This document shows positions 320 through 49,156 of a DNA stretch of 64,000 nucleotides, one piece after another; the first letter of the stretch is position 1, and the number at the start of each line of letters is the position of its first letter. The DNA comes from Candidatus Kaiserbacteria bacterium (GTDB lineage: Bacteria > Patescibacteriota > Minisyncoccia > Phycocordibacterales > Phycocordibacteraceae): contig JAPLWI010000013.1 in NCBI GenBank assembly GCA_026396675.1, positions 1,218 through 65,217 on the forward strand, given 5' to 3'. The translations under genes and the position numbers were made by a program. The notes below the pieces were generated by a model, which saw only the letters and a program-made list of their open reading frames with translations, did no database searches and was not told the DNA's origin.

Positions 320-368
320 ATGTTAAAACCTTATCATTTTCGCCACGAAATGCTAGGATAGGAGCCAC

Positions 369-458: not shown

Positions 459-461
459 AAC

Positions 462-1184: not shown

Positions 1185-1195
1185 TATAGACGGCA

Positions 1196-3514: not shown

Positions 3515-3515
3515 A

Positions 3516-4139
3516 TTACCAATCTATCGTCGCTAATTTTCGACTCACTGTACGAATTCCGAAGAAGAATAGAACCGGTATCATAAGTGCGAGCGCGATC
3601 TGGAAATTTCCTGGGATGTACTGCAATATATTGCCAAAATAGTAGCCGACACACATTAAGAGAGATATCCACACAACGCCGCCAAGCACATTGATGGTGA
3701 CGTAGCGCAAAAATGGTACTCGCAACATACCAGCAACGATTAAAATAGGCACAGCAAATCCGAACCCCATCGTGAGTTTTGATACAACAAGAATCTTGGC
3801 GTGATAGCGATTGAATCGCTTTTCCACCTTCTCAATAATCTGCGGAGTTACTCGCATAAAATGGCCCCAGCGCATAAAGAACGACCGTGCGGCGCAACGA
3901 CCGATGAGATACCACATAATATCGGAGCAAAAATCGGCGGCTAAGAGAGTGCCGAATGCAGGCCAAAAAGAAACAACACCAAGGTGCCATAGAAAACCTG
4001 TCGTCATCATCGCCGCTGATCCTTCGAAATAACAGCCAATGAAAACGAGAACGTATTTTGATTGCTCTAAAAATGCGAGCAGGGCGGGTAAAAATCCCAA
4101 CATTACTTCCAGTGAATCACGAATTGAGCTACTTGACAA
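3516..4139 (-). CDS. DedA/SNARE-associated family membrane protein
   Basis: Size and TM pattern, plus a ...KYVLVFIGCYFEGSAAMMTTGFL... region typical of DedA. Confidence 0.65.
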   Translation of the reverse strand: MSSSSIRDSLEVMLGFLPALLAFLEQSKYVLVFIGCYFEGSAAMMTTGFLWHLGVVSFWPAFGTLLAADFCSDIMWYLIGRCAARSFFMRWGHFMRVTPQIIEKVEKRFNRYHAKILVVSKLTMGFGFAVPILIVAGMLRVPFLRYVTINVLGGVVWISLLMCVGYYFGNILQYIPGNFQIALALMIPVLFFFGIRTVSRKLATIDW

Positions 4140-4196
4140 GTGTAAACAGAGGTGTATATTGTCTGCAGATAAAAATAAACCTTATGGAGGTGTTTT

Positions 4197-4784
4197 ATGT
4201 TCTTTGGATGGTTAATTGCTCTAGAAACAGAAGTGGCGTTAATGGGATTGTTTGCGTGGAGTGGTAATCTCTTCACTGAAAAACAGATGTTGAAACACCA
4301 CGGACCACAAGGGCTTGTATTCATTTACCACGGTGGGATATGGGGAGACGTCATCATCATTTCGCCGCTCGTTGCTGCTATCGTAGAGTGTTGCGGATCA
4401 GAATGGTTGTTGCGACAAAAGATCACAGCTCTTATTGTAGGGTTCGTAGCAAGTGTAGCGATGCACCAAATGTATACGAAAATTCCATGGCCCGACGCTC
4501 TCATGAATACCAAAGCGTGGATAATACACATGCTATACACGGCTCTCGCAATCGCAGCATTCTTTCTTTATTTTATTTGGGCACCCTTCACACCGTGGAT
4601 GTGGTTAGTGTCTGGTTTCATCGTCATACACGTTGCCGTTGGGAATCATGCAGTACTTGGCCTTCTACACATATCGCGTTATCCGGGGAAGCCATTCACA
4701 GATTCGTTCTTCTGGATCCAGATATCTGGTGTCGCGGTACTTACCTTTGGAGTTACTACTTGCCGGGCGTTGAAATTCTGGTAG
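4197..4784 (+). CDS. Hypothetical polytopic membrane protein
   Basis: Long ORF with 5-6 hydrophobic segments. No recognisable motif. Confidence 0.45.
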   Translation: MFFGWLIALETEVALMGLFAWSGNLFTEKQMLKHHGPQGLVFIYHGGIWGDVIIISPLVAAIVECCGSEWLLRQKITALIVGFVASVAMHQMYTKIPWPDALMNTKAWIIHMLYTALAIAAFFLYFIWAPFTPWMWLVSGFIVIHVAVGNHAVLGLLHISRYPGKPFTDSFFWIQISGVAVLTFGVTTCRALKFW

Positions 4785-4859
4785 CCAACAGGAACCGTAC
4801 AGGCGTTATACGCTTGCACGGTTCTTTCATTTTATATATCGGCGTGTCATTATTAGCAT

Positions 4860-5609
4860 ATGCGAATCAGTTTTGTAATTCCCGCTTACAATGAGGAACA
4901 GCGCCTGCCGAGTTGCTTGTCTTCAGTTGAACGCGAACTCGCACGCACTTCATGTGATGCGGAAGTCATTGTGGTAAATAATGCGAGCACTGATTGTACT
5001 GGCGAAGTCGCAAGATCATTTAATTGGGTAAAGGTCGTTAACGAACCAAACAAAGGGCTCGTACGCGCGCGCCACGCCGGATTTACCGTATCAACAGGAG
5101 ACATCATCGCGAACATTGATTCCGATACGATAATGCCGGAAGGATGGCTTGAAACCGTGATAAATGAGTTTAAACACGACGAGCATCTCGCGGCGCTTAG
5201 CGGACCATACATTTATTACGACCTTTCAATATTGCATCGTTTTTTAACAAAGTTTTTTTATTTTTTAGGGTATATATCTCATTTGATAAATCACCACATT
5301 CTGCATTCAGGCGCGATGCTTCAGGGAGGAAATTTTATCGTGCGTCGTTCACATCTTGAACAGATTGGCGGATTTGATACCTCTATTGAATTTTATGGTG
5401 AAGATACCGATATTGCACGACGCATCAGTAAAGTTGGGAGGGTGAAGTGGACATTCAAATTACCTATGTACACATCTGGTAGACGGCTCGCGAAAGAGGG
5501 AACTATGAGAATGGGACTGCGCTATGCGGCAAATTATTTCCACACGCTAATCCTCGGCAAGCCACTTACGGTTGAATACACAGACATACGCGACACCGCC
5601 AAGTATTGA
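4860..5609 (+). CDS. Family 2 glycosyltransferase
   Basis: ISFVIPAYNEEQRLPSCL...VVNNASTDCT...IDSDT motifs. Confidence 0.75.
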   Translation: MRISFVIPAYNEEQRLPSCLSSVERELARTSCDAEVIVVNNASTDCTGEVARSFNWVKVVNEPNKGLVRARHAGFTVSTGDIIANIDSDTIMPEGWLETVINEFKHDEHLAALSGPYIYYDLSILHRFLTKFFYFLGYISHLINHHILHSGAMLQGGNFIVRRSHLEQIGGFDTSIEFYGEDTDIARRISKVGRVKWTFKLPMYTSGRRLAKEGTMRMGLRYAANYFHTLILGKPLTVEYTDIRDTAKY

Positions 5610-5613
5610 TGTT

Positions 5614-6552
5614 TTATTGTTTCTTAATCCACAAATAAATATCTTCAAGCGCCTTAACACCGTCGCCGGCAGCGATATTATTCTGATGATAGAGCTCGTC
5701 TGTGCAGTCGCCGGCGGCCCAAATTCCTTCAATGCTCGTGCGTTGATTGTGTGCGTCCGTTTTTATACGCTTTAAATCGTCAACAGCAACAAGTCCTTCA
5801 GCGAATCCTGTATTCGGAACTACACCAATTTCTACAAAAATACCGGACACGTTACATTCTTTTATTTCCTCTGAATCATTATCTTTATATTTAAAACCAG
5901 TAACGAATCCGCCAGCTGGCGGATCGCCCAGAATCTCAGTCGGTTCGGCATTCGAAATCACGTGCATATTCGGATGTGCGCAGGCCTTAGCAACAGTTAT
6001 CGGATCCGCCTTGAACTCTTTGTTTTTATGGACGAGCGTGACTGACTTCGCGTATGCAAGAAGTTGAAGCGCTGTCTCAAAACCAGCATTGCCGCCACCG
6101 ATGACCGCAACGTCTTGGCCTGAAAACATGGGGCCGTCGCATGAAGCGCAGTAAGTAACACCTTTATTCTCAAATTTCTCCGCGCCGGGGATATCAAGTT
6201 TTCTGCGGCTTGCTCCCGAAGCTACTAAAATTGCTTTCGCAGAAAATTCTTTTCCAGTTTTTGTTTTTGAAATGAATCCAACGTTAATTTTTTCAAGTGA
6301 TTCAACACGTTCGCCTAGTTCAAGCGTTACAAAATCATTTTTTACGGCATCAAGATGCGCACCGAGCGACTTAGCCAAGTCAGCTCCGCTTATCTTCGGT
6401 GTGCCGACCCAATTTTCAATGCCATCTGAAACAACTGATTGCCCACCGATTTCTTCAGCGATGAGAATTGTTTTTAAATGTTTGCGCGCCGCATAAATAC
6501 CCGCGGCAGCGCCTGCCGGCCCCCCGCCGATAATTATTAAGTCATTCATCAC
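5614..6552 (-). CDS. trxB: Thioredoxin-disulfide reductase
   Basis: IIIGGGPAGAAAGIYAAR FAD motif, CASCD redox-active CxxC, GGGNAG NADPH motif, AAGDC. Confidence 0.9.
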   Translation of the reverse strand: MMNDLIIIGGGPAGAAAGIYAARKHLKTILIAEEIGGQSVVSDGIENWVGTPKISGADLAKSLGAHLDAVKNDFVTLELGERVESLEKINVGFISKTKTGKEFSAKAILVASGASRRKLDIPGAEKFENKGVTYCASCDGPMFSGQDVAVIGGGNAGFETALQLLAYAKSVTLVHKNKEFKADPITVAKACAHPNMHVISNAEPTEILGDPPAGGFVTGFKYKDNDSEEIKECNVSGIFVEIGVVPNTGFAEGLVAVDDLKRIKTDAHNQRTSIEGIWAAGDCTDELYHQNNIAAGDGVKALEDIYLWIKKQ

Positions 6553-11536: not shown

Positions 11537-12682
11537 CTATGCGAATGATTTCAGGCGCTCGATGATGCCGACGAGGGGTAGGACGGTTTCTTCTTGCGTG
11601 GCGCGATTGCGGAGAATGGCGGAATTCTCGAGCGCCTCTTTACGCCCCATAATTAGAAGATAAGGACTGTTCTGTCGTTCGGCAAGGTAAAGCTGTTCAG
11701 TGAGCGATTCAATGCCTATATGTTGTGTGAGTGGAACATGTGCCTTTCGGAATTCTTCAGCGAGGCGAATTGAAAGCCGTTTCGCTTCATCGCCGATATG
11801 TACGAAAGAGAACCGAAGTCGCGGAACGGATATTTTTTTAATTATTTTTCCTTCGCTCGCTATCTGAAACACCGCACCAATTGCTGGGAATGATGCCGAA
11901 GGGAAGAAATGGCGCGTAAGATCGGTATAGCGCGAACCCCAAGCAACGCGACGACCGCCAACATTAATCTCGAAACAAATATCGCTCCAGATATTGCCGC
12001 GACTGATAAGATGGCGCGCGAGCTCGTATGGAGTTTCTGTCATCTCCAGATACTCGAGAAGATCTTCAAAGCGTTTTCTACTCGCATCCGATAGATGTTC
12101 AGTTGGAGAAGGTAAGTCGTTTGTATATCCAAGTGCAATAGCGCTTTCGGCGGCTCGAAACACATCGTCTTTTGCAAGAATAGCGCATTCTTCTGGAAGT
12201 ACAGTCGCGCGCTTTTTGAAAAAGATGCCGAGCTCGCGCGCGTAGCGCGCGCGGGTCTCTTTATCACCCATTGAATTAATGCGCACGGACGGTTCTTCGT
12301 GGAAAAGATCGCGAGAGAGCGCAGTCAGTGCTCGTATGACAACTGCGTCTGCAATCGCACGATCAGTTCCGAGCGCGTGGAATTGCAGAATCGCTTTTTT
12401 CTGTGCCGGACGACCTGGAGTAACATTCGTATGCCAAATAAAAAGCGGCCGGCGCGTAGATGGTAAGCACTCGATGTTCTGACATTGTTTTAAAAAGCTT
12501 ATGACCGTCTCAGCGACAGGATCTTCTTCTGGATTTGGAAACGTACTTTGAGTATTGGTCTTTGCATGCGCCGCTCCGCGCTTCTTAGCGGTAAATAGTG
12601 AGAGCGGAGTAAATCCATAGTACTGACCAATCGCATGTGCTTTGTGAAGAAATTCTTCTCCCGGAATACAATCACGCATCAT
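11537..12682 (-). CDS. hisS: Histidyl-tRNA synthetase (or HisZ-like paralog)
   Basis: N-terminal RD..PGEE motif, GGRRVAWGSRYTDL (GGRYD-like motif 3), C-terminal class II anticodon-binding-like domain. Confidence 0.6.
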   Translation of the reverse strand: MMRDCIPGEEFLHKAHAIGQYYGFTPLSLFTAKKRGAAHAKTNTQSTFPNPEEDPVAETVISFLKQCQNIECLPSTRRPLFIWHTNVTPGRPAQKKAILQFHALGTDRAIADAVVIRALTALSRDLFHEEPSVRINSMGDKETRARYARELGIFFKKRATVLPEECAILAKDDVFRAAESAIALGYTNDLPSPTEHLSDASRKRFEDLLEYLEMTETPYELARHLISRGNIWSDICFEINVGGRRVAWGSRYTDLTRHFFPSASFPAIGAVFQIASEGKIIKKISVPRLRFSFVHIGDEAKRLSIRLAEEFRKAHVPLTQHIGIESLTEQLYLAERQNSPYLLIMGRKEALENSAILRNRATQEETVLPLVGIIERLKSFA

Positions 12683-13275
12683 AGTGTTTTAGATTGTGTC
12701 GATGAAGAAATAAGAAGCGGATATGTCGTCGCACCTGGGAAGAAACCGCTTTTCTTTATAGGAAGGAGCCGCAGATCAACGCGACCGACGATATTCTTTC
12801 TCGGTAATGGCCCCCAAACGCGACTATCAGAACTGTTGGGGCGGTTATCACCCATAACGAAGTATCCTTCTGAATTAAGAGAGACATCTTTTGTATAAGT
12901 TGCATCTTCACTCACCATGTACGGTTCCTCGAGAGTTATATTTTGTCCATCAACGGTAGTAATGGTAACAACTCCACGATTGATGGAGACCGTTTCACCG
13001 GGAAGACCGATAATTCGCTTGATAAAGAAAAGAGAAGGATTGTCAGGGTAGCGGAAGACAATAACATCACCTCGTGCAGGCGTCTTGAAATAATAAAGAA
13101 GCTCATCAACGATGAGATAATTGAGATTTTCGAACGTCGGATGCATCGATTCGCCATCAACAATAAACGGCGAAATCACGAACATACGAATCGGAATGAC
13201 CACGACAACAATAAGTAACGCGAGCGTGAAAAGATCCTTCAATAAACCCTTCCAAGTATCTTTCATCTCGTGCAT
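12679..13275 (-). CDS. lepB: Signal peptidase I
   Basis: DGESMHPTF (Ser box), VFRYP..., GDNRPNSSDSRVWGP. Start taken at the internal Met (MHEMKD). Confidence 0.8.
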   Translation of the reverse strand: MHEMKDTWKGLLKDLFTLALLIVVVVIPIRMFVISPFIVDGESMHPTFENLNYLIVDELLYYFKTPARGDVIVFRYPDNPSLFFIKRIIGLPGETVSINRGVVTITTVDGQNITLEEPYMVSEDATYTKDVSLNSEGYFVMGDNRPNSSDSRVWGPLPRKNIVGRVDLRLLPIKKSGFFPGATTYPLLISSSTQSKTL

Positions 13276-13322
13276 TGTACTCGCGCGTTCGCACTGTGCA
13301 AGTTTTCTGCTACCATAAGCAC

Positions 13323-13919
13323 ATGGCACTCGTTATTGTTGGTCTCGGGAATCCGGGGAAGGAGTACGAAAAAACGCGGCACAATGCCGGCAGAAATGCC
13401 GTGATGGTTGTTGCTAAGAATGAAGGATTTGATGAGTTTGTTTTCAATGCAAAAAGTAAAGCGCTCATTACAAAAGGCAACATCGGCAAAGAGAGCGCAG
13501 TTCTCGTCCTGCCAGAAACGATGATGAACAATTCCGGCAAAGCTGTCAGCGCGTTCGTAAAATCACCAAAAGCGGCAAAAAATCTTCTCATTATTCACGA
13601 CGACATCGACCTGCCACTTGGGACGATAAAAATGGTATTTGGCCGCGGAAGCGGTGGGCACAAAGGCGTTGAGAGCATTATGCGCGCTATTAAAACAGAA
13701 AAATTTGCACGCATTCGCATCGGTGTTTCTGCTGTTGGTAAAAAGAATCAAGCGAAAAAGGTTTCTGGAGAAGAAAAAGTCATTAAGTATGTAATAGGGA
13801 AGTGGAAGCCCAGTGAAGAAACTGCCTTCAAGAAGGTTTTGAAAAAAGTCGCCGAATCCGCGCGCCTTTACGCAACCGAAGGCATCGCTCCTGCCACCCA
13901 ATTCGCCAATACTCGTTAG
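13323..13919 (+). CDS. pth: Peptidyl-tRNA hydrolase
   Basis: MALVIVGLGNPGKEYEKTRHNAG... Start at the internal Met of ORF 13275. Confidence 0.85.
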   Translation: MALVIVGLGNPGKEYEKTRHNAGRNAVMVVAKNEGFDEFVFNAKSKALITKGNIGKESAVLVLPETMMNNSGKAVSAFVKSPKAAKNLLIIHDDIDLPLGTIKMVFGRGSGGHKGVESIMRAIKTEKFARIRIGVSAVGKKNQAKKVSGEEKVIKYVIGKWKPSEETAFKKVLKKVAESARLYATEGIAPATQFANTR

Positions 13920-13923
13920 AAAT

Positions 13924-13954
13924 AAAAACACTTCCATATATGGAAGTGTTTTTA
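13924..13954. terminator. Bidirectional terminator between pth and rpsA
   Basis: Perfect palindrome AAAAACACTTCCATATATGGAAGTGTTTTT. Confidence 0.7.
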
Positions 13955-13978
13955 CTACTGACTTACGATGTCCAGAAT

Positions 13979-15052
13979 TTATTTCTTCTTTCCAGCGTAG
14001 GTGAGTGTCATTCGCTGTTCCTTCGGCTCAAAGAGGGAAATGGTGAAAGGATAGGTTTTGCCGAGTTCCAATGTCTCGCGGAGCGCAGCCGGTGACTCAA
14101 ATTCGCTTACATGCACGAGTCCGGCAACGCCTTCTTCTATCGAGGCAAGCGCGCCATGCTTGTTGTATTTAATAACAACTCCCGGCACCTCCATTCCTTT
14201 CTTGTACCGTTCGACAGCCGCGTGCCAAGGGTTTTCCTTTAATGCCTTAATTGAAAGAGAAATCTTACCCTCTTTTATTTCAATAATTTTTACCTTAACT
14301 CGATCGCCGACAGTGAAGAGCGTGTGAGGATCTTCAACAAGACCCCAATCAAGTTCGCTGATGTGTGCAAGGCCTTCGAGTCCTTGTTCAAGCTTCACGA
14401 ATACACCGAAGTCAACGATGCCAGTTACCTCGCCTTCTGCAGTATCGCCAACTTGGTATTTATCAATAAGAGATGCCTTTTCTTCCGCTTCATTTCCAGT
14501 GCGTTCTGAGAAAATAAGTTTTCCTTCTTTCGCATCAGCGGTGATGATATGCACCGACAGGGGATGACCGACAAAGGCCATCAGTTCACTGAGAATCTTA
14601 TCTTTATCTCCTTCCGGTACGCGCGGATAATGTTCTTTTGAAAGTTGTGACGCTGGAAGAAATCCAGGAATGCCCTGCCACGAGAGAATAAGCCCACCTT
14701 TATTCGCTTCTTCTACTGTGAGAGTGTATGGCGTTTCCGCAATGATGGCGGTCTCTGCTTCGCCCCAAATTGCTGCTTGGCGCGCTTCCTTCAGCGACAG
14801 TTCGATATAACCATCACGACCTGCTGGATCAATAACTTTTGCACTGATGATGTCGCCAGGATTCGCTTTTCGCAGAACATCGGCGGCATTCAGATATTCA
14901 CGACCATAGATAACGCCGGTGCCGAATGGCGGCAGATCAACATATACGCGGCCGCGGTTAATTGCGATGATCGTACCCTCGACCAAATCGCCCGCCACAG
15001 GCGGCATCGGGATAGTATCAAGCAAAGACAGCATCACATTTTCTTCAGACAT
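13979..15052 (-). CDS. rpsA: Ribosomal protein S1-like (four S1 domains)
   Basis: Repeated S1 OB-fold modules (GD.V.G.V..I...G.FV.L). Confidence 0.8.
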   Translation of the reverse strand: MSEENVMLSLLDTIPMPPVAGDLVEGTIIAINRGRVYVDLPPFGTGVIYGREYLNAADVLRKANPGDIISAKVIDPAGRDGYIELSLKEARQAAIWGEAETAIIAETPYTLTVEEANKGGLILSWQGIPGFLPASQLSKEHYPRVPEGDKDKILSELMAFVGHPLSVHIITADAKEGKLIFSERTGNEAEEKASLIDKYQVGDTAEGEVTGIVDFGVFVKLEQGLEGLAHISELDWGLVEDPHTLFTVGDRVKVKIIEIKEGKISLSIKALKENPWHAAVERYKKGMEVPGVVIKYNKHGALASIEEGVAGLVHVSEFESPAALRETLELGKTYPFTISLFEPKEQRMTLTYAGKKK

Positions 15053-36351: not shown

Positions 36352-36426
36352 GCCGGTGTAGTTCAAGAGTTAGAACGAGGGACTCATAAACCCTAGACGG
36401 TGGCGCGACTCCACCCGCCGGCACCA
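36352..36426 (+). tRNA. tRNA-Met-like (anticodon CAT), non-canonical T-loop CGCGACT, CCA encoded
   Basis: Acceptor GCCGGTG/CGCCGGC, D-arm GTTC-AAGAGTTA-GAAC, anticodon loop CTCATAA with GGG/CCC stem and A.A closing pair, T-stem GGTGG/CCACC. Confidence 0.5.
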
Positions 36427-36489
36427 AGACATTTTTAGGAAATTTTGGTAGGATTAATGTACGTCAGAGAAAGAAACTTGACAAATAAT

Positions 36490-36563
36490 GCGGCTGTAGC
36501 TCAACGGTAGAGCGCCACCCTGTCACGGTGGAGGTCGTGGGCCCAACACCCATCAGCCGCGCA
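36490..36563 (+). tRNA. tRNA-Asp (anticodon GTC), non-canonical T-loop CCCAACA
   Basis: Acceptor GCGGCTG/CAGCCGC, D-arm GCTC-AACGGTA-GAGC, anticodon stem CCACC/GGTGG with loop CTGTCAC. Confidence 0.6.
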
Positions 36564-36666: not shown

Positions 36667-37257
36667 ATGGCGCTCAACACAACGAATCACCCGATTCGCT
36701 GGAAAGAGCGAATCGGCATCATTGCAACAGGACATGCAGCGAAATTGACCGAGAGCTTGCTCTTCGATCATTTCCTGTATGGTGTGGTCGTCAATTATCT
36801 GACGATCACATACGGGTGGATGTGGGGAGCAGTCGCTTCTTTCTTGGTGATGTCTCCCATATCCGCCCTCGAATGTCGTGGTCTTATCCTTTTGTATGAC
36901 TGGGCAAAGAAAGATTTCTTCGGCTTCGAGAAAGCGAAGGAATTCTGCGACGAACTCTCGAAAGGTGGAAAGTGGAAGAGATTTCTCAATTCACTTATCC
37001 GCTTGAGTGATGTTCTAGCATTCTTTATTCTCTCAACGATATATCCAGGAGCCGATCCATTTTTGGCAACTATATATCTACGAAAGGGAGCAGAGGAGTA
37101 CAACGGAATGACGAAGCGGGACTGGAAGATCTTCTGGGCAGCGGTTGTTGTAGCGAATGGCTACTGGACACTACGATGGACAGTGTTCGTGGCACTCTTC
37201 TGGATTTTTTTATGGCCAGTGCTTATCAAACCTATGGTTCACTGGCTAGGTTTCTAA
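36667..37257 (+). CDS. Hypothetical polytopic membrane protein
   Basis: ORF with about 5 hydrophobic segments. Confidence 0.45.
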   Translation: MALNTTNHPIRWKERIGIIATGHAAKLTESLLFDHFLYGVVVNYLTITYGWMWGAVASFLVMSPISALECRGLILLYDWAKKDFFGFEKAKEFCDELSKGGKWKRFLNSLIRLSDVLAFFILSTIYPGADPFLATIYLRKGAEEYNGMTKRDWKIFWAAVVVANGYWTLRWTVFVALFWIFLWPVLIKPMVHWLGF

Positions 37258-37323
37258 CCCGGCGGCTTTGCACACGCATTGCCGCCGGTTTTTCTTTTTG
37301 CACTTGCGTGGTATAAGTAAAGT

Positions 37324-37698
37324 ATGGATGTAGAAACAAAACAACCGATTCCTTGGATTCTCTGGATCTTGCTTGCCTCGGTGCTCATTATCCTCGGGCA
37401 GAGTATGTACAAAAACTATATTGCGAAGAACTACCCATTTTTTATAGAAGCGTCGTGTGACACAGCGACGAATGAATGTTATGTGCGCAGTTGTGATGTC
37501 GACGGGGACTGCCCGCCGGACAATCTCACCGTATACCGCGTTTTCCAACTTCCTGCCTTTGAATTTAAAAATTGTTCTGATAATTCTTGTTTGAATATTT
37601 GTCCATCCGAGGCACATTCTTGTGAAGAAATAATGTGCTCAACCCAGAGCGACATTTCGTGCGATGGACCAATAGAAGGAACAGCAACTAGTTTATGA
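37324..37698 (+). CDS. Small membrane-anchored Cys-rich extracellular protein
   Basis: N-terminal TM, 12 Cys in about 90 residues. Confidence 0.45.
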   Translation: MDVETKQPIPWILWILLASVLIILGQSMYKNYIAKNYPFFIEASCDTATNECYVRSCDVDGDCPPDNLTVYRVFQLPAFEFKNCSDNSCLNICPSEAHSCEEIMCSTQSDISCDGPIEGTATSL

Positions 37699-38537
37699 CC
37701 AAAGCAAAAGAGTCGGTGCATATTCCGCGTCTTGTACGCCGTTCTATGAATGGTGTGATGCAATTTGACGCGTTCAGTAATCTGTATACAGAACCGCGTA
37801 TCGCGCTCTGGGAATTGAATCAGCGAAGAAAGGATAACGCGCTTAAAAAGGCGGTGCGAGAGAATCTCGGTTCATCTGCGGAAAATTTTCTCAAGAAGTT
37901 TAACCAGCCGCGTGCAGTACTCTTCCGTCAAGTCGCGACTCCAACACACGAAATCATCCGTTTTCTTAAAATCGCCAATAAAATGAATCTTAAACCGCTC
38001 ATTCTCGAGTATCATGATGACAAATTCGTGAGCGCCGAGAATCGCTTTAAGCGATCGCTTGGCAAGATGCCGATTTACCAATACACCGGTTCGGATGGAC
38101 GGGAAATGGTGGAATACGAAACAATATGCAATTTTAATACCTCAACCGGTAAAAAATTTAAGAATATAATCTGTCTTAATGGTGAAAAATTGATTCCTTT
38201 TCATCATCGCTTATTTAGAACGCTTACAGGATTAAATCCAAAAACATATACGGTTGACGGTTCTGACTGGTTCTCGTCGGCGGGGAAGAAAGCAGAATTG
38301 TATTATGAGCAATTCCTCTCATTCTTCATACGAGATGGCATCTTATTTGAGAATTTTATGCCGTTCCGATCAGAAGGCGCTTTTACAAAGACCATAATTT
38401 CACCTGCGTTTGAAAATCTTGAAAAAAAGTACGGAGTAAAACCGCTCATTGTGCGCCTCGCTCCCGAAAAAGAAGAAATGCGTCAATTCTGGGACGCGTA
38501 TCCTAAAAAGATTAAAAAGCATTTGAAGATTGTTTGA
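37695..38537 (+). CDS. Hypothetical protein
   Basis: 280-aa ORF with consistent codon usage and no recognised motif. Confidence 0.45.
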   Translation: MTKAKESVHIPRLVRRSMNGVMQFDAFSNLYTEPRIALWELNQRRKDNALKKAVRENLGSSAENFLKKFNQPRAVLFRQVATPTHEIIRFLKIANKMNLKPLILEYHDDKFVSAENRFKRSLGKMPIYQYTGSDGREMVEYETICNFNTSTGKKFKNIICLNGEKLIPFHHRLFRTLTGLNPKTYTVDGSDWFSSAGKKAELYYEQFLSFFIRDGILFENFMPFRSEGAFTKTIISPAFENLEKKYGVKPLIVRLAPEKEEMRQFWDAYPKKIKKHLKIV

Positions 38538-39108
38538 TATGGCGCATAAACTCGAAGAAGAAATAAAACTTGCGGTGCAGGATATACCCGCGATGCTTTC
38601 AAAAATTCGTTCCGTTGCAAAATATGTGAGGATTGAGTATCTACGTGATGTCATTTATGGGGCGAGCGGAGAGAAAAAGAAGATTCGCTTACGAATTCAA
38701 GACAATTTCGAATTTCGTCTTGTAGATGCTACCTATAAATATCGTGTGGCGGTAGAGGAAGGCGTCAAAAAAGAAATAGAAGAGACCCTATATAAAGGCA
38801 ATTCTTGTGAGGACGCATTGAAAATCATTTCTTCGCAGGGACTTATAGAAGAAAATTCGTATGAAAAGACACGAGTTATTTTCGCTGGTCCACACGATAC
38901 TGAAATTACGCTGGATATCTATCCTTATGGCGCATGGGTGGAAATTGAGGGTGAATCATCCAAAATTCACGAAGTCGCGAAACAGCTCGGTTTCAGTCAA
39001 AAAGAGTACATTGAAACAGGGGCAGACGATCTTTATCTGGAATGGATTAAAAAACATAATCTTCCTGAAATGTGGGATGTGCGATTCGGCCTGAACGGTA
39101 ATAAATAA
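38530..39108 (+). CDS. CYTH-domain protein (class IV adenylyl cyclase / triphosphatase-like)
   Basis: N-terminal EEEIKL (ExExK) and alternating acidic beta-strand pattern typical of CYTH. Confidence 0.5.
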   Translation: MFDMAHKLEEEIKLAVQDIPAMLSKIRSVAKYVRIEYLRDVIYGASGEKKKIRLRIQDNFEFRLVDATYKYRVAVEEGVKKEIEETLYKGNSCEDALKIISSQGLIEENSYEKTRVIFAGPHDTEITLDIYPYGAWVEIEGESSKIHEVAKQLGFSQKEYIETGADDLYLEWIKKHNLPEMWDVRFGLNGNK

Positions 39109-39124
39109 TCGATACAGTTTTTTT

Positions 39125-39934
39125 GTGCTACTTATAATCGGTGGTATAATCCATTTTATGGACTTACAATTATTTATATCTAATGAATTGGCGATTCATT
39201 TTTATTATTCGAGAGATAGTGTTGAAGGAGACATCTTCCATGTAAAAAATCTGTGTTTAGTGTTTCCGGGATTGCCCAACACGATAGATAAGAGTTATTT
39301 CTCAGATAGAGTCAGTAGAGATACTGCATTTCTCTCCGTTTCTTACTACGGTACATGGATGAGTGGTGGAAATTTTAATCCACAAAGCGTAAAACAAACA
39401 ATTCAAGACGCCATTTCATTTGCAAAATCTAAAGAAGGCGTTAAAGCTTTTGACAATGAGAAAATGTGCTGGGAATATGAGAATCTGTTCGTGGTTGGGT
39501 ACAGCTTCGCTGGGAATTTTGTCCTTAACTCGGTTTTGGATAAAGACAGTATAACCTCTATTATACTATGTGCACCTTTGATTTATGTAGACAAACAAAT
39601 TGTCGAAACGGTGTTGGGGAATGACGCAAGTGATTTCTTTGACTCCAATATGTTTTTTCTACAGTTTTTACAGCGCGGTTATCCGTATGTTTTACGGGGT
39701 ATTGAAGATCATTCTTGGGCAAGCTATTTTGATGGATCATACGATCTAAGTAAAATATCGATTCCAGAAAATTATCCGCCAATTCATGTCATTCACGGAA
39801 CTGAAGATACTCAAGTGAATTTCAAATTTTCTGAGTATTTTAATAGTCAGTACCCAACAATCTCCACTCTTGAACTGCAGAAAGGAGTCGGGCATACAAA
39901 AGAGATGTTTCAAAGTAGACACCTACGTGTATGA
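39125..39934 (+). CDS. Alpha/beta-hydrolase fold protein
   Basis: GYSFAG nucleophile elbow (GxSxG), C-terminal His (GVGHT). Confidence 0.55.
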   Translation: MLLIIGGIIHFMDLQLFISNELAIHFYYSRDSVEGDIFHVKNLCLVFPGLPNTIDKSYFSDRVSRDTAFLSVSYYGTWMSGGNFNPQSVKQTIQDAISFAKSKEGVKAFDNEKMCWEYENLFVVGYSFAGNFVLNSVLDKDSITSIILCAPLIYVDKQIVETVLGNDASDFFDSNMFFLQFLQRGYPYVLRGIEDHSWASYFDGSYDLSKISIPENYPPIHVIHGTEDTQVNFKFSEYFNSQYPTISTLELQKGVGHTKEMFQSRHLRV

Positions 39935-40686
39935 GTAGAAAACTGGTTTGCATAACAGATTGTGTTGATGTTGCATATAACGAATTGCGCGGAGTGGTTT
40001 ATTCAGAATTACAAAAACTTGGCACGGTTTCTGACTTAATAATCGAACCAGTCGTTCCGGTCGAGGCCTTTTCTGTCATAAACGGCAATTTCATCCTACG
40101 CCTCATGGGAGAGGTATATCCTGATGGCACTGTTTTCTTAGTAATTTTAAACCCATTAAAAGAAAGACCTGCTCGCTTAGTTGGGAAAACAAAAAAGAAG
40201 GGGTTTTATTTTGTTGGGGCAAACACGGGTGTGTTTGATTGGTTCACTAAAGATTTCGGAATAGAAGAACTTTATGAATTGCACGATCCTGGATTCGTTC
40301 CATTTGGAGGGAAATATGTACATGCTCCTTCTGCGGTCAAGATAGCGTGTGGAGTAAATCTGGCGACTCTTGGCAAACCTTTTGATAAACAAAATCTATT
40401 GCAATTAGACGTGCAAGATGGCACTATCGTGCACATAGATAATTTCGGGCTGATAAAATTTACCGGTATCCTACCTGAATTAAAAGAGAACACTCAATTA
40501 AAGATTGATATCAACGGGCAGTTTATTTCAGCGGTCTATGCACAAAGAATGATGAGCAGGGAAACAGGCGAATGGGTCTTATATCCTGGCAGTTCTTTGG
40601 GGCTACCTGAGGTAGGAAAAGTAAGATGCAATGGAGCGGAAGAAATACGGGCACGTGTCGGAGAAGTTATTAAAATATCGATTTAA
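39931..40686 (+). CDS. SAM hydroxide adenosyltransferase (DUF62, fluorinase/chlorinase-like)
   Basis: VCITDCVD N-terminus, TIVHIDNFGLIKF C-terminal barrel motif, DPGFVPFGGKYVHAPS. Confidence 0.6.
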   Translation: MSRKLVCITDCVDVAYNELRGVVYSELQKLGTVSDLIIEPVVPVEAFSVINGNFILRLMGEVYPDGTVFLVILNPLKERPARLVGKTKKKGFYFVGANTGVFDWFTKDFGIEELYELHDPGFVPFGGKYVHAPSAVKIACGVNLATLGKPFDKQNLLQLDVQDGTIVHIDNFGLIKFTGILPELKENTQLKIDINGQFISAVYAQRMMSRETGEWVLYPGSSLGLPEVGKVRCNGAEEIRARVGEVIKISI

Positions 40687-41876: not shown

Positions 41877-42096
41877 AATTCACCTCGCTCCTCGGGATTT
41901 TTTAATCTCAATGTACAAATCTAATACAAGAGTGCCATAATTATCTTAAATGCGCAAGGTTTAAATAACATGAATTATTTGCTAATACTTTTATGCTAAA
42001 ATATACCAACATATATGCTCACCATTCTCGCTTCTGCCAAGCCAAGTCCGATCCATGGGGTAGGGCTTTTTGCCGATGAGTTTATTCTGGGGAAAT

Positions 42097-42693
42097 ATGA
42101 AAAATAAAAAGCTTGTCATAAAGCAGACCCGTAAGTACGGCAAGGGAGTTTTTGCCGGAGAAGATATTAAAAAAGGCAAAGTAGTTCGCGAACTTTCTGG
42201 AGAAAGAATGACAATTGACGATTTTATAAGAAAAGTGAATTCCGGAAAAGAAAATATCAATGATCCCTTACAGATAGGACGAAGAACTTACATAGATTAT
42301 GATGAGTTATCTCGCACCATAAACCATAGTTGCGATCCGAATTGCGGTATTAGAAAGGTAAAAGAACTTTTTGCGTTGAGAGATATAAAAAAGGGGGAGC
42401 AGATAACCTATGACTATTCTTCAATAATCGCGCCAACCGTGTGGCAAATGAAATGCAAATGCGGTTCGAAGAATTGTCGAAAAATTATAAAAGATGTCTT
42501 ATCCTTGCCGAAAAAACAACGTGAAAAATATCAAAAGCTCGGCGCATTTCAGACATATATGAAAGTATTGCTCAAGGAAGTTGATGCTGGCACTTACAAA
42601 ACGCCGAAATATGAGATTCGCTTGTTGGAGAGTTTAAACAAGAGATATGAAGGGGATACGAAAATAAATAAAAGGAGTAGATTGTCAAGTTGA
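42097..42693 (+). CDS. SET-domain protein (putative protein lysine methyltransferase)
   Basis: GKGVFAGEDIKKGKVV, NHSCDPNC, ITYDY, post-SET Cys cluster CKCGSKNC. Confidence 0.7.
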   Translation: MKNKKLVIKQTRKYGKGVFAGEDIKKGKVVRELSGERMTIDDFIRKVNSGKENINDPLQIGRRTYIDYDELSRTINHSCDPNCGIRKVKELFALRDIKKGEQITYDYSSIIAPTVWQMKCKCGSKNCRKIIKDVLSLPKKQREKYQKLGAFQTYMKVLLKEVDAGTYKTPKYEIRLLESLNKRYEGDTKINKRSRLSS

Positions 42694-42778
42694 CAGAATT
42701 TCGGAAACATATATCATATAAGTAGATGCTCTTTGACTGCTAAAGAGTAAAATCTCAAAAAAAGAAAGGAGATGTGTT

Positions 42779-43819
42779 ATGAACATTCCGAAAGTTGCTT
42801 GGCTCACGGTCAATAGGGCATGCAATTTGCGCTGTCAATGGTGCTACGGTACCTCGCTCGGTTTTGCCAGCGAATCCGAAATGGATTATGAAACCGCAAA
42901 GAATATCGTCCTATTGCTAAAGGATGTTGGCGTCGAATCAATCGTACTGATTGGTGGAGAGCCGACTCTCTGGAAAGATTTATTCAGGTTTAATGACTTT
43001 TGCAACAGTTTGCCGATCAAGACAAATATAGTAACGAACTGTTACAAATTTCATTCCGAACACTTCTGGCTTCAGTACCAACAACATCCCAATTCTCGCA
43101 TAGAACCTTCTTTGAAGGCGTTTGATGAGCGTAGCAGTTTGCTAATAACAAAAAGCAGAGAATTCGAAAAGGTAAGGGTAGGTATGCGACGCGCTGCTGG
43201 GGAATCTAAAACGATGATAAATGTTGTTTACTCCACTCTTATCGAGGGTAATCTGCTGGAAATGGTGTCGGCGGCTGTTGATTTGGGCGCCTACTCAGTG
43301 CGAATTGGTGTTTGCAAGCCAATGTCCATCGGTGGCAAGTTCGCTGCACCATTTACCGTTCCATTCGGTAGAATGGCTTCAGAAATAACGAGCAACTATG
43401 CGAAAATGGTTGATATTACAAAAGGAAGATTGTCGTTCGCGTTAAGTACACCGTTCTGTGTGTGGCCGGCTGACTTCATTCAAGACGGTATTGCACACAA
43501 GAGAATTGGTGTCGGGGGATGCCAATTCCAAAAACATTCAGGTGTAGTTTTTGACACAGACGGCACAGTGGTCTTGTGCAACACAATGTTTGAATGTCCC
43601 GTTGGTAAATACGGCGTTGATTTTAACGACAGCTTGTCATTTCTCGCCATGATAAACGGCGAGAAAGTCAACAGTATTTACAGACACATTAGCTCTTATC
43701 CATCAGAAGAATGCATTGGTTGCGATTTTTTCCAAGAATGCCAAGGGGGTTGCCCAATAATGTGGACAGTGTATAATCCAAATGGAATCGTTCATTCCAT
43801 AAAAAAAGGAGGTGAGTAA
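42779..43819 (+). CDS. Radical SAM enzyme with C-terminal SPASM/twitch domain (peptide maturase)
   Basis: CNLRCQWCY (CxxxCxxC), LIGGEPTL, C-terminal Cys cluster CIGCDFFQECQGGCP. Confidence 0.8.
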   Translation: MNIPKVAWLTVNRACNLRCQWCYGTSLGFASESEMDYETAKNIVLLLKDVGVESIVLIGGEPTLWKDLFRFNDFCNSLPIKTNIVTNCYKFHSEHFWLQYQQHPNSRIEPSLKAFDERSSLLITKSREFEKVRVGMRRAAGESKTMINVVYSTLIEGNLLEMVSAAVDLGAYSVRIGVCKPMSIGGKFAAPFTVPFGRMASEITSNYAKMVDITKGRLSFALSTPFCVWPADFIQDGIAHKRIGVGGCQFQKHSGVVFDTDGTVVLCNTMFECPVGKYGVDFNDSLSFLAMINGEKVNSIYRHISSYPSEECIGCDFFQECQGGCPIMWTVYNPNGIVHSIKKGGE

Positions 43820-43820
43820 A

Positions 43821-43973
43821 ATGGACGCATTCTTAAAGCAGTTTCAGGTTTCTGGGATCGAATCCCCACAGTTCGTCCAGACCAGTTCAACTGGCAACAG
43901 TCAGACGAACTTTGAGACCGATGGTTGCGGCGGAGACGGTTGCGGCAATGGCTGCGATCCGGATCCGGGCTAG
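43821..43973 (+). CDS. 50-aa Cys-rich precursor peptide (MDAFLKQFQVSGIESPQFVQTSSTGNSQTNFETDGCGGDGCGNGCDPDPG); absent from the ORF track
   Basis: AAGGAGGTG Shine-Dalgarno 8 nt upstream. Starts 2 nt after the rSAM stop. Followed by a strong terminator. Confidence 0.6.
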   Translation: MDAFLKQFQVSGIESPQFVQTSSTGNSQTNFETDGCGGDGCGNGCDPDPG

Positions 43974-43984
43974 GCGGTCTCAGC

Positions 43985-44030
43985 ACAAAAGGTGCCACTA
44001 TTGTATTAGTGGCACCTTTACTTTTTCTGT
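43985..44030 (+). terminator. Rho-independent terminator after the precursor peptide gene
   Basis: AAAGGTGCCACTA-TTGTAT-TAGTGGCACCTTT followed by ACTTTTTCT. Confidence 0.75.
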
Positions 44031-44053
44031 AATCAAGACAATATTGTATATAT

Positions 44054-46087
44054 ATGAAAATGCCACGAACAAAAAAGGAAGATATTGTTGATGAAATACA
44101 TGGCATTCTCGTTTCCGATCCGTATCGCTGGTTGGAGAGTGGCGACGATGAAGATGTTAAGAAGTGGGTTGCCGAACAGAACCACTATACAGATTCATTT
44201 TTAAAAAACAAATATCAAAAGAAGTTCTCGGATGAACTTGTCAAGGATTTTAATGCCGTTGAGTTTTCTAATCTTCTTCCGGTCAAAGGGCGTTATTTCT
44301 TTACCGAGCGACGACTGGGTGAAGATCAAAAGGTTTTATATGTTAAAGACGGTCTAAATGGTATCCCAACAAAATTGGTTGACCCAAATGAACTGCACAA
44401 AGATCACTCGATCTCTCTTGATTATTGGAAACCTGGGTGGACAGGTAACTATGTCGCCTATGGTTTGTCCGAAGGTGGAGATGAGATGTCTACATTATAC
44501 ATAATAGATGTTGACAAAAAAGAAAATTTGCAAGAAAAAATCGTTAACTGCAGTTACCCATCTATTCAATGGCTGCCTGACGACTCGGGATTTTTCTATA
44601 CACGGAATCCGCGTTCTGGCACAGTTCCTAAAGGCGAAGATCGCCTTCATGTAAAAGTATATTTTCACGAGCTTGGGAGCAATCTTGATGACGACCCATT
44701 GATCTTCGGCGCTGGGCGACCAAAGGATGACAAAATAAACCTCACATCATCAATTGACGGGAGGTATGTCGCCATTCATGTTTCCAGCGGGTGGACTGAG
44801 AATGAGATATATATCTACGACAGAGAACAAGTCAAAGTTATGCCTATGATTGTTGGCATATCGGCAAAATTCAAACTTATATTTCTAAGCGACAAGGCAC
44901 TTCTCTTTACGAATTATAAGGCGAATAATTATAAGGTACTTTCAACCGGTCTTGAGAATTTGTTTAAGCCCGTTGATGAATGGAAGGAGTTCTTTCCAGA
45001 AAAAGAAAATCTTCTGGCAAGCGTGGTTGCCTCAGAAGATCGGGTTCTGCTTGAATATCAGGTGAATGCCTGCTCTGGAATAATCATGCTCGATTACTCC
45101 GGTAGAGAAATTGAGAAGGTGCCATTACCCGACTATTCGCATGTGACCGCTATCACCGCGTCGAGAACCGAGAAAGAATTCTTCTACAGTATAGTATCGT
45201 TCACTTCTCCGAGAATTACCTACCGTTTTAATCCTGAGAATCAAAAATTTGAAACATATAGAACAGCAGATAATCCGATAGACCCAGAACAGTACATAAC
45301 CAAACAAGAATGGTATGCGTCAAAAGACGGGACTAAGATTCCGATGTTTATCGTGCACAAAAAGAATGTGCTTCTGAATGGCACAAATCCAACCATACTT
45401 TACGGGTACGGAGGTTTTGGTTCGAGCGAGACCTCAGATTTCAATCGGGGTCTCGTGCCGTGGCTAGAGCGCGGTGGAATCTATGCTGTTGCCAATATCC
45501 GCGGAGGAGGTGAATTCGGCAAAGAGTGGCATAAAGGCGGAATAAAAGAGAATAAACAAAACAGTTTTGATGATTTTATCGCCGCTACTGAGTATCTCAT
45601 CAATCAGAAATATACGGATATCAATCATCTGGGCATTCTCGGGGCTAGTAATGGCGGCCTGCTTGTCTCGGCCGTCGCGGTGCAACGGCCTGATTTATTC
45701 AAGGCAGTTTGTGCCAGAGTACCGCTCACGGATATGGTTCGATTTCAGAAATTCGGCATGGCTGTCCGATGGGTACACGAATATGGAAATCCTGACATAA
45801 AAGAAGGTTTGGAGCGGATTTTAAAATGGAGCCCCTATCATAATGTGAAAGAAGGCGTGGAATATCCAAATATGCTGTTTATTACCGCGGACAAAGATAC
45901 GAGAGTGGATCCGATGCATTCCAGAAAAATAACAGCATTACTTCAGTCGGTGAATAAGGAGAACAAGATTTTGCTCTTTACTGAGACCGAAGCAGGTCAT
46001 GGGGCGGGAAAGCCAGTGTCAAAAATCATTGAATCGCAATCATTTGTTTTGACCTTTTTTGCCAGAGAACTTGATTTGAATGTCTGA
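44054..46087 (+). CDS. Prolyl oligopeptidase family (S9A) serine peptidase
   Basis: N-terminal beta-propeller, GASNGGLL (GxSxGG), catalytic Asp/His region (TADKDTRVDP, GHGAG). Confidence 0.85.
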   Translation: MKMPRTKKEDIVDEIHGILVSDPYRWLESGDDEDVKKWVAEQNHYTDSFLKNKYQKKFSDELVKDFNAVEFSNLLPVKGRYFFTERRLGEDQKVLYVKDGLNGIPTKLVDPNELHKDHSISLDYWKPGWTGNYVAYGLSEGGDEMSTLYIIDVDKKENLQEKIVNCSYPSIQWLPDDSGFFYTRNPRSGTVPKGEDRLHVKVYFHELGSNLDDDPLIFGAGRPKDDKINLTSSIDGRYVAIHVSSGWTENEIYIYDREQVKVMPMIVGISAKFKLIFLSDKALLFTNYKANNYKVLSTGLENLFKPVDEWKEFFPEKENLLASVVASEDRVLLEYQVNACSGIIMLDYSGREIEKVPLPDYSHVTAITASRTEKEFFYSIVSFTSPRITYRFNPENQKFETYRTADNPIDPEQYITKQEWYASKDGTKIPMFIVHKKNVLLNGTNPTILYGYGGFGSSETSDFNRGLVPWLERGGIYAVANIRGGGEFGKEWHKGGIKENKQNSFDDFIAATEYLINQKYTDINHLGILGASNGGLLVSAVAVQRPDLFKAVCARVPLTDMVRFQKFGMAVRWVHEYGNPDIKEGLERILKWSPYHNVKEGVEYPNMLFITADKDTRVDPMHSRKITALLQSVNKENKILLFTETEAGHGAGKPVSKIIESQSFVLTFFARELDLNV

Positions 46088-48949: not shown

Positions 48950-49022
48950 GCCGAGATAGCTCAGTTGGTAGAGCAGCTCCATGGTAAGGAGCAGGTCGTC
49001 GGTTCAATCCCGACTCTCGGCT
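48950..49022 (+). tRNA. tRNA-Thr (anticodon GGT)
   Basis: GCCGAGA acceptor, anticodon stem GCTCC/GGAGC with loop ATGGTAA, T-loop TTCAATC. Confidence 0.8.
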
Positions 49023-49156
49023 CAGAGAAAAAGGTGTTGAAAAATCGATTGACAAAATAAGTGTTTTTTGCTACTTCTAATCGCAGAACGATTGTTCTTT
49101 GCTGTAATCACAGTTATTGAACTGAACAAAAATACAAACGAGCGAAGGAGGTTAAT

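Follow-up and report, generated by a model that had tools for sequence, protein, structure and literature searches.

The canonical SPASM domain of radical S-adenosylmethionine (SAM) enzymes carries a seven-cysteine motif (CX9-15GX4C...CX2CX5CX3C...C) and two auxiliary clusters, and Patescibacteria, the bacteria of the candidate phyla radiation (CPR), have tiny genomes with very few recognised natural-product genes. A 64,000-nt stretch of contig JAPLWI010000013.1 from Candidatus Kaiserbacteria (assembly GCA_026396675.1; hereafter the window, whose numbering is used unless another locus is named) contains a gene for a radical SAM (rSAM)/SPASM protein, 100% identical to an NCBI entry named Candidatus Kaiserbacteria, which is followed directly by a gene for a small cysteine-rich peptide. 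These two genes probably form a self-contained, translationally coupled cassette for a peptide that is made by the ribosome and modified after translation (RiPP), matured by a leader-guided thioether mechanism that is proposed below. Its closest analogues would be, by function, the ranthipeptide system of PapB (freyrasin; NF047865) and the SCIFF system (TIGR03973/TIGR03974; CteB, PDB 5wgg/5why); by structure, the closest is SuiB/StrB (streptide, KxxxW; TIGR04080; PDB 5v1q), a SPASM peptide maturase with an N-terminal RiPP recognition element (RRE) of ~100 aa, which joins Lys to Trp by a C-C bond in a KxxxW core. The SCIFF cassette is minimal, with one rSAM/SPASM enzyme and a Cys-rich peptide of ~45-50 aa that has a conserved six-Cys pattern. 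PapB links the sulfur of Cys to the beta carbon of Asp in CX3D motifs, joining Cys to Asp or Glu and accepting CXnD with n = 0-6, and its leader binding has been discussed as RRE-based (PMC9413430).

Homologues of the window rSAM protein number 73 in a collection of 5.8 billion proteins, and a pattern scan with their alignment retrieved relatives from 239 species-representative genomes and from 280 or more metagenome contigs; 80 genome loci and 80 metagenome loci, 160 in total, were examined. A recognisable homologous precursor lies near the rSAM gene in 68 of the 80 genome loci and in most metagenome loci, usually at most 300 nt downstream and on the same strand, and the two genes are kept side by side in lineages with rSAM identity down to 27-30%. 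When position and length are considered, an open reading frame (ORF) of 35-100 aa that starts between -60 and +220 nt from the rSAM stop on the same strand is present in about 55 of the 80 genome loci, and in most of the others such an ORF lies slightly farther off, upstream, or on the opposite strand. A profile hidden Markov model was built without the window, from 67 precursors found at other loci; searched against 1906 six-frame segments of the window, it returned the small ORF as its single match (E 2.5e-5; next best 0.29). An earlier note on this DNA had proposed that the ORF is a conserved Cys-rich precursor paired with the rSAM/SPASM enzyme, and had named its absence or lack of conservation in orthologous loci as what would count against the idea; the pairing is borne out, and the ORF is conserved in those loci. 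The note had also suggested a check of whether the SET-domain gene upstream co-occurs with the other two genes in related bins; precursor and rSAM do co-occur, and SET is seldom with them (4 of 160 loci).

The window precursor (MDAFLKQFQVSGIESPQFVQTSSTGNSQTNFETDGCGGDGCGNGCDPDPG) consists of a leader (residues ~1-16, MDAFLKQFQVSGIESP), a variable linker (residues 17-32), and a core (residues 33-50, TDGCGGDGCGNGCDPDPG) with three cysteines (C36, C41, and C45). Its sole lysine, K6, is in the leader, and the core has neither Lys nor Trp; the proline residues are Pro16, Pro47, and Pro49. Asp39, Asp46, and Asp48 stand 0-4 residues C-terminal of C36, C41, and C45, with Cys-Asp spacings of 0, 2, and 4. 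In the family alignment, the amphipathic, conserved leader follows the pattern M-x-x-[FL]-[LI]-x-x-[FL]-x-[VL]-[ST]-G-[IV], often continued by P-x-G, and in the window's own clade it reads FL[KE]QFxV[ST]GIESP. It is followed by a linker of variable length and then by a hypervariable C-terminal core, in which Cys is the sole residue constant across cores. Among 78 precursors, the cores contain 25.5% Cys, 16.3% Asp, and 12.8% Gly, the commonest Cys spacing is CxC (190 of 392 gaps), and 11 cores have neither Asp nor Glu. The short adjacent ORF, the conserved leader, and the variable core are the features by which a RiPP precursor-maturase pair is generically recognised. An NCBIfam scan of 32 family precursors at E up to 1 gave two marginal single-member matches and nothing else.

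The closest locus, L161, has an rSAM protein 85% identical to that of the window. Between the two precursors, leader residues 4-16 show no amino-acid difference although their codons carry five synonymous substitutions, nearly the entire linker has been exchanged, and the core TDGCGxDGCGNGCDP is kept; L161 also has the same Shine-Dalgarno element (AAAGGAGGTGA) and, at the equivalent place, a terminator hairpin with a different stem sequence. This pattern points to purifying selection on the leader and the core, and the combination of a conserved leader, a free linker, and a selected core is what marks a translated RiPP precursor.

The enzyme belongs to the radical SAM superfamily by both domain and fold: PF04055 scores 47.8 bits against a cut-off of 29.5, the CxxxCxxC motif (C15-x3-C19-x2-C22, residues 15-22), which in this superfamily holds the SAM-cleaving [4Fe-4S] cluster in a partial TIM barrel, is nearly invariant, being kept in at least 90% of 30 family sequences, and the AlphaFold2 model has alternating beta/alpha elements, with top structural matches that are all rSAM enzymes. 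The SPASM model TIGR04085 scores 31.9 bits against a cut-off of 27 over residues 248-332; of the two models that the earlier note had named for a profile check, the other, the SCIFF maturase model TIGR03974, gave no match. Seven cysteines C-terminal to the radical SAM motif, arranged as C248-x13-G262-x4-C267 and C312-x2-C315-x5-C321-x3-C325 plus C227, are invariant or nearly so in the 30 family members; C227 is invariant and C179 nearly invariant across the family, and these two residues might complete the ligand sets of the auxiliary clusters. There is no room for an N-terminal RRE, a PqqD-like domain of about 80-100 aa, because the CxxxCxxC motif already occupies residues 15-22: the protein starts 14 residues before it and has no PqqD/RRE match in Pfam or NCBIfam. 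Nor did the clustering of neighbour genes in the 80 genome loci reveal a conserved stand-alone RRE-like gene.

The best match in the PDB is SuiB (profile E 1.4e-19 over residues 20-339), which aligns only from its residue 137. Foldseek searches with the AlphaFold2 model (pLDDT 91) likewise place SuiB at the top (TM 0.69-0.71), followed by the anaerobic sulfatase maturase anSME (~0.66), BlsE, SkfB, and CteB. No NCBIfam equivalog, among models covering PapB, StsB, SkfB, AlbA, KxxxW, PqqE, mycofactocin, anSME, NirJ, and MoaA, comes near its cut-off for the window protein or the 30 family members, and among the 25 best of the 56 NCBIfam matches of the window protein no equivalog reaches one fifth of its cut-off. 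The earlier note had regarded a clean fall into a non-peptide family such as anSME as fatal to its idea; the model TIGR03942 of anSME, an enzyme acting on sulfatases with a C/S-x-P-x-R motif, is absent from those 25 best of 56 matches, and across the family it matches weakly in 24 of 30 members (best E 8e-14). The same note had called the system SCIFF- or sactipeptide-like, a label that holds as an analogy and not as a membership, as no SCIFF or sactisynthase cut-off is reached. Judged from these profiles, the window protein would be a peptide-type SPASM enzyme of no described subfamily.

The family resembles its described analogues in outline and departs from each in detail. As in the PapB system, an rSAM/SPASM enzyme accompanies a leader-bearing precursor whose core alternates Cys with Asp, and the Cys-Asp spacings of the window core fall inside the n = 0-6 range; however, the PapB model aligns only with residues 9-70, the window enzyme has no RRE, its leader motif is unrelated, and neither a regular CX3D pattern nor, in 11 of the 78 family cores, any acidic residue is found. 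With SCIFF, the family shares the minimal cassette, the lack of a conserved transporter or immunity gene, and CteB as a structural match. In contrast to SCIFF, the enzyme gene here precedes the peptide gene, there is no N-terminal RRE, the home is in the CPR, an HExxH peptidase is usual, the cores are hypervariable, and neither TIGR03973 nor TIGR03974 matches the window peptide, the 32 family precursors, or the 30 enzymes. SuiB differs from the window system in its RRE and its chemistry, the window core having no Lys or Trp, and TIGR04080 gives 41 bits against 500. The sactipeptide maturases (AlbA, NF012164; SkfB, TIGR04403; StsB, NF045574) score far below their cut-offs, and the N-terminal RRE of such systems, whose products have S-C-alpha links, has no counterpart in the window enzyme. 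Haft's 'rSAM-modified Cys-rich RiPP' families (FibroRumin, TIGR04135; AC3_0185, TIGR04118) are similar in that short precursors with a Cys-rich C-terminus lie beside an rSAM/SPASM gene and are known only from genome context, but only one of the 32 family precursors touches either model (E 0.04-0.1) and the window peptide matches none. Taken together, a compact RRE-less maturase, a leader motif of its own, hypervariable Cys/Asp/Gly cores, the order enzyme-peptide-HExxH, and a centre in the CPR appear to set the family apart.

The two genes are tightly joined (Table 1). A single base separates the rSAM stop codon (TAA, 43817-43819) from the precursor ATG, and a Shine-Dalgarno sequence (AAGGAGGTG) ends 6 nt before this ATG; because it sits inside the last rSAM codons, translation of the precursor is implied to be coupled to that of the enzyme. 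The terminator behind the precursor has its stem at 43988-44019, followed by ACTTTTTCTG, and a minimum free energy of -24.5 kcal/mol (z = -4.4; 0 of 200 shuffles fold as well). Upstream, a promoter candidate lies 62 nt 5' of the rSAM start and overlaps the SET stop codon; it is a consensus match of a kind found eight times in the region against 11.5 expected, which is no enrichment, and CPR promoters are poorly known. Lying on either side of the rSAM and peptide genes, this promoter-like site and the terminator mark them off as a unit, apart from the SET gene and the prolyl oligopeptidase (POP) gene. The earlier note had placed the 50-codon ORF right after the rSAM stop and had described a strong Shine-Dalgarno sequence and a strong terminator around it, all of which is confirmed. 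It had also taken the ORF to be unannotated; the ORF is indeed absent from the list of reading frames used there, but in GenBank it is entered under MCX6786621.1 with the title 'hypothetical protein NTU85_02285 [Candidatus Kaiserbacteria bacterium]'. The domains that the note had assigned to the SET, rSAM/SPASM, and POP genes were all recovered with Pfam and NCBIfam. No non-coding RNA was found by Rfam in the intergenic regions, the matches in the window being tRNAs elsewhere, and the GC content of the cassette (0.44) is indistinct from its surroundings and gives no signal of horizontal transfer.

Table 1. Features of the window around the rSAM/SPASM and precursor genes
Feature	Position	Strand	Remarks
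DUF62 / SAM hydroxide adenosyltransferase-like protein	39931-40686	+	PF01887; weak match to (R)-SAM hydrolase
aaRS-like protein, 378 aa	40740-41876	-	sub-threshold HisRS/HisZ-like C-terminal match, E 6e-5
SET-domain methyltransferase	42097-42693	+	PF00856; alternative TTG start at 42070
Promoter candidate, sigma-70-like	42690-42717	+	TTGACA-16 nt-TATCAT, 11/12 consensus matches
Radical SAM/SPASM maturase, 346 aa	42779-43819	+	PF04055 and TIGR04085 above cut-offs
Shine-Dalgarno sequence of precursor	43806-43814	+	AAGGAGGTG; inside last rSAM codons (KKGGE)
Precursor peptide, 50 aa	43821-43973	+	ATG 43821, TAG 43973; GenBank MCX6786621.1
Intrinsic terminator	43988-44027	+	13-bp stem, 6-nt loop, T-rich tail
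S9A prolyl oligopeptidase (POP), 677 aa	44054-46087	+	Pfam and NCBIfam matches
Orphan multi-pass membrane sensor histidine kinase, 531 aa	46123-47718	+	Pfam/NCBIfam

In most members of the family, the position after the precursor is held by a small peptidase. When all ORFs up to 6 kb away from the rSAM gene, in both directions, were clustered for the 80 genome loci, only two neighbour families recurred, in 34 and 20 loci, and both consist of small proteins (~125-240 aa) that start right after the precursor. An HExxH motif with a Glu 18-29 residues later, the ligand pattern of gluzincin metallopeptidases, is invariant in both (34 of 34 and 22 of 22 proteins), although the proteins have no NCBIfam match and Pfam gives sub-threshold SprT-like matches only. 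An HExxH protein is encoded in 81 of the 115 loci that have at least 1.5 kb of downstream sequence (~70%), a count that becomes 82 when M16 and POP are included, and this small metallopeptidase is probably the leader peptidase of the family. An M16 (insulinase/PqqF-like) peptidase replaces or accompanies it in five loci (L001, L092, L072, L136, and L143), at 2252-3526 in L001 and 10056-11324 in L092; in L001, whose rSAM protein is 64% identical to that of the window, the M16 gene follows the precursor directly and is followed in turn by SET and kinase genes. Most of the close relatives with rSAM proteins 60-70% identical carry the HExxH gene (L081, L082, L083, L085, L087, L089, and L162). There is no HExxH homologue anywhere in the 64 kb of the window, and in the window and L161 the POP gene occupies the slot usually held by the HExxH peptidase. 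The window copy is an ordinary family member, its sole oddity being the missing HExxH gene with POP in its position.

The maturation proposed for the cassette would begin with the leader docking directly on the maturase, because the enzyme has no RRE. The rSAM cluster would then cleave SAM reductively, and the resulting 5'-deoxyadenosyl radical would take a hydrogen from an acceptor residue in the core. A Cys thiolate would capture the carbon radical with the assistance of the SPASM auxiliary clusters, and C36, C41, and C45 would thereby close as many as three thioether rings within the peptide; the positions of Asp39, Asp46, and Asp48 would fit ranthipeptide-type Cys-Asp links. A peptidase would finally remove the leader, a step in which POP may serve in the window. 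That the three core cysteines become leader-guided thioether cross-links has a slightly better than even chance on this evidence, and a chemistry other than thioether formation is considerably less probable. Several observations weigh against the proposal. The window enzyme and the whole family have no Cys after C325, so that the last Cys of the canonical SPASM motif is missing; auxiliary cluster II may be bound in another way, and one auxiliary cluster may have a ligand that is open or not Cys. The models of all curated thioether-forming families give the enzyme scores far under their cut-offs (PapB 42.8 bits against 340, StsB 50.7 against 625, SkfB 34.5 against 300), and SuiB, the closest structure, makes a C-C bond and not a thioether. 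A uniform Cys-Asp rule is unlikely because of the family cores without an acidic residue. Around the cassettes of the 80 genome loci, no gene for a transporter, an exporter, or immunity recurs as a conserved neighbour. The POP step, in particular, is opposed by three further points: POP genes are not enriched near cassettes (3 of ~166 loci), the window gene lies downstream of the strong terminator, and the conserved leader residue Pro16 occurs equally in relatives with the HExxH gene.

These points bear differently on the alternatives. A chance ORF, or an enzyme whose substrate is a non-peptide or a protein, would make the pairing non-functional; the numerically best NCBIfam scores do belong to MoaA (55.6 bits) and NirJ (47.5 bits), and exact look-ups in the protein collection retrieved only two of eight peptide sequences, that of the window included, at least five of seven orthologues being missing from it. 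However, neither score exceeds about one sixth of the cut-off for its family, and the persistence of the precursor beside distant rSAM homologues, its recovery by the leave-window-out profile, the purely synonymous changes in the leader, and the conserved Shine-Dalgarno sequence and terminator make this explanation very improbable, and the comparative data effectively refute it. More serious, though still unlikely, is a real cassette with another chemistry, such as C-C or C-O cross-links, epimerisation, or formylglycine-like oxidation of Cys, in which the cysteines would act mainly as metal ligands in the manner of a metallothionein or chalkophore. The structural matches fit it, with the C-C cross-linker SuiB followed by the Cys/Ser oxidase anSME, as do the unreached thioether cut-offs, the missing SPASM cysteine, and the prevalence of CxC, a spacing typical of metal-binding peptides. 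Against it, Cys is the sole residue conserved across all cores, in which neither aromatic residues nor Lys, the residues used by known C-C cross-linkers, are conserved, and cysteines are the cross-link donors in sactipeptides, ranthipeptides, and the QhpC/QhpD system (general knowledge and PMC9413430).

The earlier note had drawn the locus wider, with SET as an unusual partner of the enzyme and POP as a possible leader peptidase or macrocyclase. Read as a four-gene pathway in which SET methylates, rSAM cross-links, and POP removes the leader or macrocyclises the core, it is only partly supported and, as a whole, improbable. All four genes are co-directional and close together, L161 has the same order SET-rSAM-peptide-POP, and the occurrence of unrelated peptidases (HExxH, M16, and S9) after the precursor would fit non-orthologous replacement. 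SET occurs within 6 kb of the cassette in four of the 160 loci (L001, L006, L008, and, as a weak partial match, L092), and POP within 3.5 kb in one (L003, where it is convergent and follows the HExxH gene), L161 being additional in both counts; both genes are therefore absent from more than 95% of the homologous loci. Both are also far more widespread than the cassette, SET with at least 120 clusters at 54% identity or more and POP with at least 120 at 57% or more, the latter nearly all from Patescibacteria where named, against a total of 73 homologues of the rSAM protein. No cassette adjoins any of the three nearest POP orthologues that were sampled (82%, 80%, and 68% identical), SET orthologues precede a kinase without one, the core offers no Lys to a lysine methyltransferase, and the promoter-like site and terminator set the pair apart. 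Neither SET nor POP is a regular member of the system. A separate alternative concerns function, and it too has only a small chance of being right: the modified peptide would be a signal for the adjacent orphan kinase, with SET and kinase as a receptor or regulatory module, and not an antibiotic or an intracellular cofactor-like peptide. A histidine kinase gene is found no farther than 6 kb from the cassette in 21 of the 160 loci, making it the most recurrent of the window's neighbour genes, and in nine of these 21 the alignment to the window kinase reaches into the membrane sensor region, at rSAM identities of 28-66%; in L167, an orthologous kinase (58% identical) directly precedes a different rSAM/SPASM-peptide-HExxH cassette, and hypervariable cores behind conserved leaders would fit signalling or specificity. 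On the other hand, ~87% of the cassettes have no kinase within 6 kb, no exporter is conserved, and no response regulator was found in the window by tblastn with CheY, PhoB, and NarL receiver domains, six of the 160 loci having one. The loci that combine kinase and cassette are not independent because synteny in small CPR genomes is inherited, and the kinase may recur because its place was inherited, because the site is an insertion hot spot, or because kinase and peptide are linked in sensing. A wider joint reading is a long shot: leader recognition without an RRE, a cross-link chemistry unlike the known sacti- and ranthipeptide links and helped by an auxiliary cluster with an open or non-Cys ligand, and strain-specific signals or host-interaction factors read by the orphan kinase, with its SET partner, would come together across the CPR.

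The POP protein is a clear and complete member of the S9A family, whose enzymes join an N-terminal seven-bladed propeller to a C-terminal alpha/beta hydrolase domain; it scores 266 bits for Peptidase_S9_N (PF02897) and 192 bits for Peptidase_S9 (PF00326), and its motifs GASNGG, DTRVD, and GHG, as read from the translation, would fit a Ser/Asp/His triad. POPs that process RiPPs include FlaP, which acts on the class III lanthipeptide flavipeptin, and the macrocyclases PopB and PCY1. Like these, an S9A enzyme encoded beside the precursor could cut after Pro, and the window peptide offers Pro16, Pro47, and Pro49; unlike these, the window POP is orthologous to a gene found across Patescibacteria without cassettes, and its adjacency is not enriched. 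By its distribution, POP is a widely conserved housekeeping-type gene, and the L161 POP is only 63% identical to that of the window although the rSAM proteins are 85% identical. POP may or may not serve as the leader or trimming peptidase of the window cassette; the sole argument for such a co-option is one of position, peptidases of three unrelated types being found in that slot in different lineages. An rSAM gene near the 80%-identical POP in L165 was considered as a cassette member and rejected, being unrelated to the family.

The SET protein meets PF00856 with 63 bits against a cut-off of 22.4 (E 4e-17), matches the SET domains of KMT2, ASH1L, and NSD in the PDB (E down to 5e-13), and carries CKCGSKNC after the domain, where such methyltransferases have a post-SET Cys cluster. 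In L168/L169 and in the contig carrying P0208, the SET gene is followed, directly or after one gene, by a multi-pass histidine kinase of the family that follows POP in the window, with no cassette between them (6001-8299 in L168/L169), and in L001 SET and kinase are adjacent (4340-6400). These arrangements make SET and a ~530-aa multi-pass kinase a conserved Patescibacteria backbone with variable inserts: the window and L161 carry rSAM-peptide-POP there, and L167 (7001-12072) has three genes unrelated to these. SET would accordingly be a syntenic neighbour and not a tailoring enzyme. It also matches a 180-residue chain named BurB (PDB 9l4t; E 1e-10). BurB, an enzyme that acts on a small molecule and not on protein lysine, would leave a non-protein substrate possible for SET. 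The L167 SET is 93% identical to that of the window, and the L167 kinase is followed (12259-14582) by a different, 451-aa rSAM/SPASM protein with a C-terminal extension, a Cys-rich peptide, and an HExxH protein of the Peptidase_MA-like type. The L167 peptide (MEIIKVSAENECTDNGFLSLNVSDSIGGMVCDKCDNCDCQACDNCDSTSCHCHCYSS, ending in CDKCDNCDCQACDNCDSTSCHCHCYSS) had not been called as a gene, the caller having taken a wrong-frame ORF of 38 aa.

On the sequences at hand, the cassette family is large and uncurated and belongs mostly to Patescibacteria, with some members in Firmicutes, Proteobacteria, and Myxococcota. Although it occurs in at least 239 species-level genomes, mostly of the CPR, no curated model was found for it, nor, in full-text literature searches on the CPR and radical SAM RiPPs, any publication describing it. 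The main text of the rSAM-RiPP compendium (Mitchell, PMC10288494) mentions neither the CPR nor such an architecture. RiPP enzymology would gain from the family a compact maturase (~345 aa) able to recognise its leader with no RRE, a naturally occurring collection of hypervariable cores rich in Cys and Asp, and small metallopeptidases of a new family that probably remove the leader. In CPR biology, the product would be a candidate secreted or signalling molecule of host-attached organisms, and the joint reading above, if true, would amount to a peptide communication module in episymbiotic bacteria that are otherwise nearly devoid of natural-product genes. For annotation, it is of note that most family precursors are not called as genes. 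The members outside the CPR come from Myxococcales (L045, L047, and L052, three cassettes in one metagenome-assembled genome) and from metagenome-assembled genomes of Firmicutes (L054, L057, L065-L070, and L074). They have no HExxH gene, and their precursors are longer or far richer in Cys, one of 99 aa in L070 reaching 20 Cys; L054 and L057 carry a GACGACGACGACGG repeat upstream of the enzyme.

In the window, the hydrolase, SAM-hydrolase-like, aaRS-like, SET, rSAM, peptide, POP, and kinase genes form a 12.4-kb block, with tRNA-Met and tRNA-Asp genes (36352-36562) upstream and a tRNA-Thr gene (48950-49023) downstream; its GC content of 0.37-0.45 is not clearly distinct from the flanks. The window ORFs at 36667-39108 have no Pfam match. 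The earlier note had placed a divergent gene with class II aminoacyl-tRNA synthetase (aaRS)-like motifs upstream of SET: the gene is present and divergent, but its HisRS/HisZ-like match is weak and below the Pfam cut-off, and no PDB sequence match was obtained at E up to 1. The pair of SAM-hydrolase-like and aaRS-like genes was considered as part of the system and rejected, as it recurs only in L019 and one metagenome locus; in L019, the pair lies upstream of the rSAM gene and is 68% and 56% identical to that of the window. L161 contains a second RiPP-like cluster (1-4276), 4-8 kb upstream of its SET-rSAM-peptide-POP block, with genes for a 454-aa PqqD-rSAM-SPASM protein, a 52-aa ORF, a methyltransferase, and a C39-type peptidase domain protein, among others.

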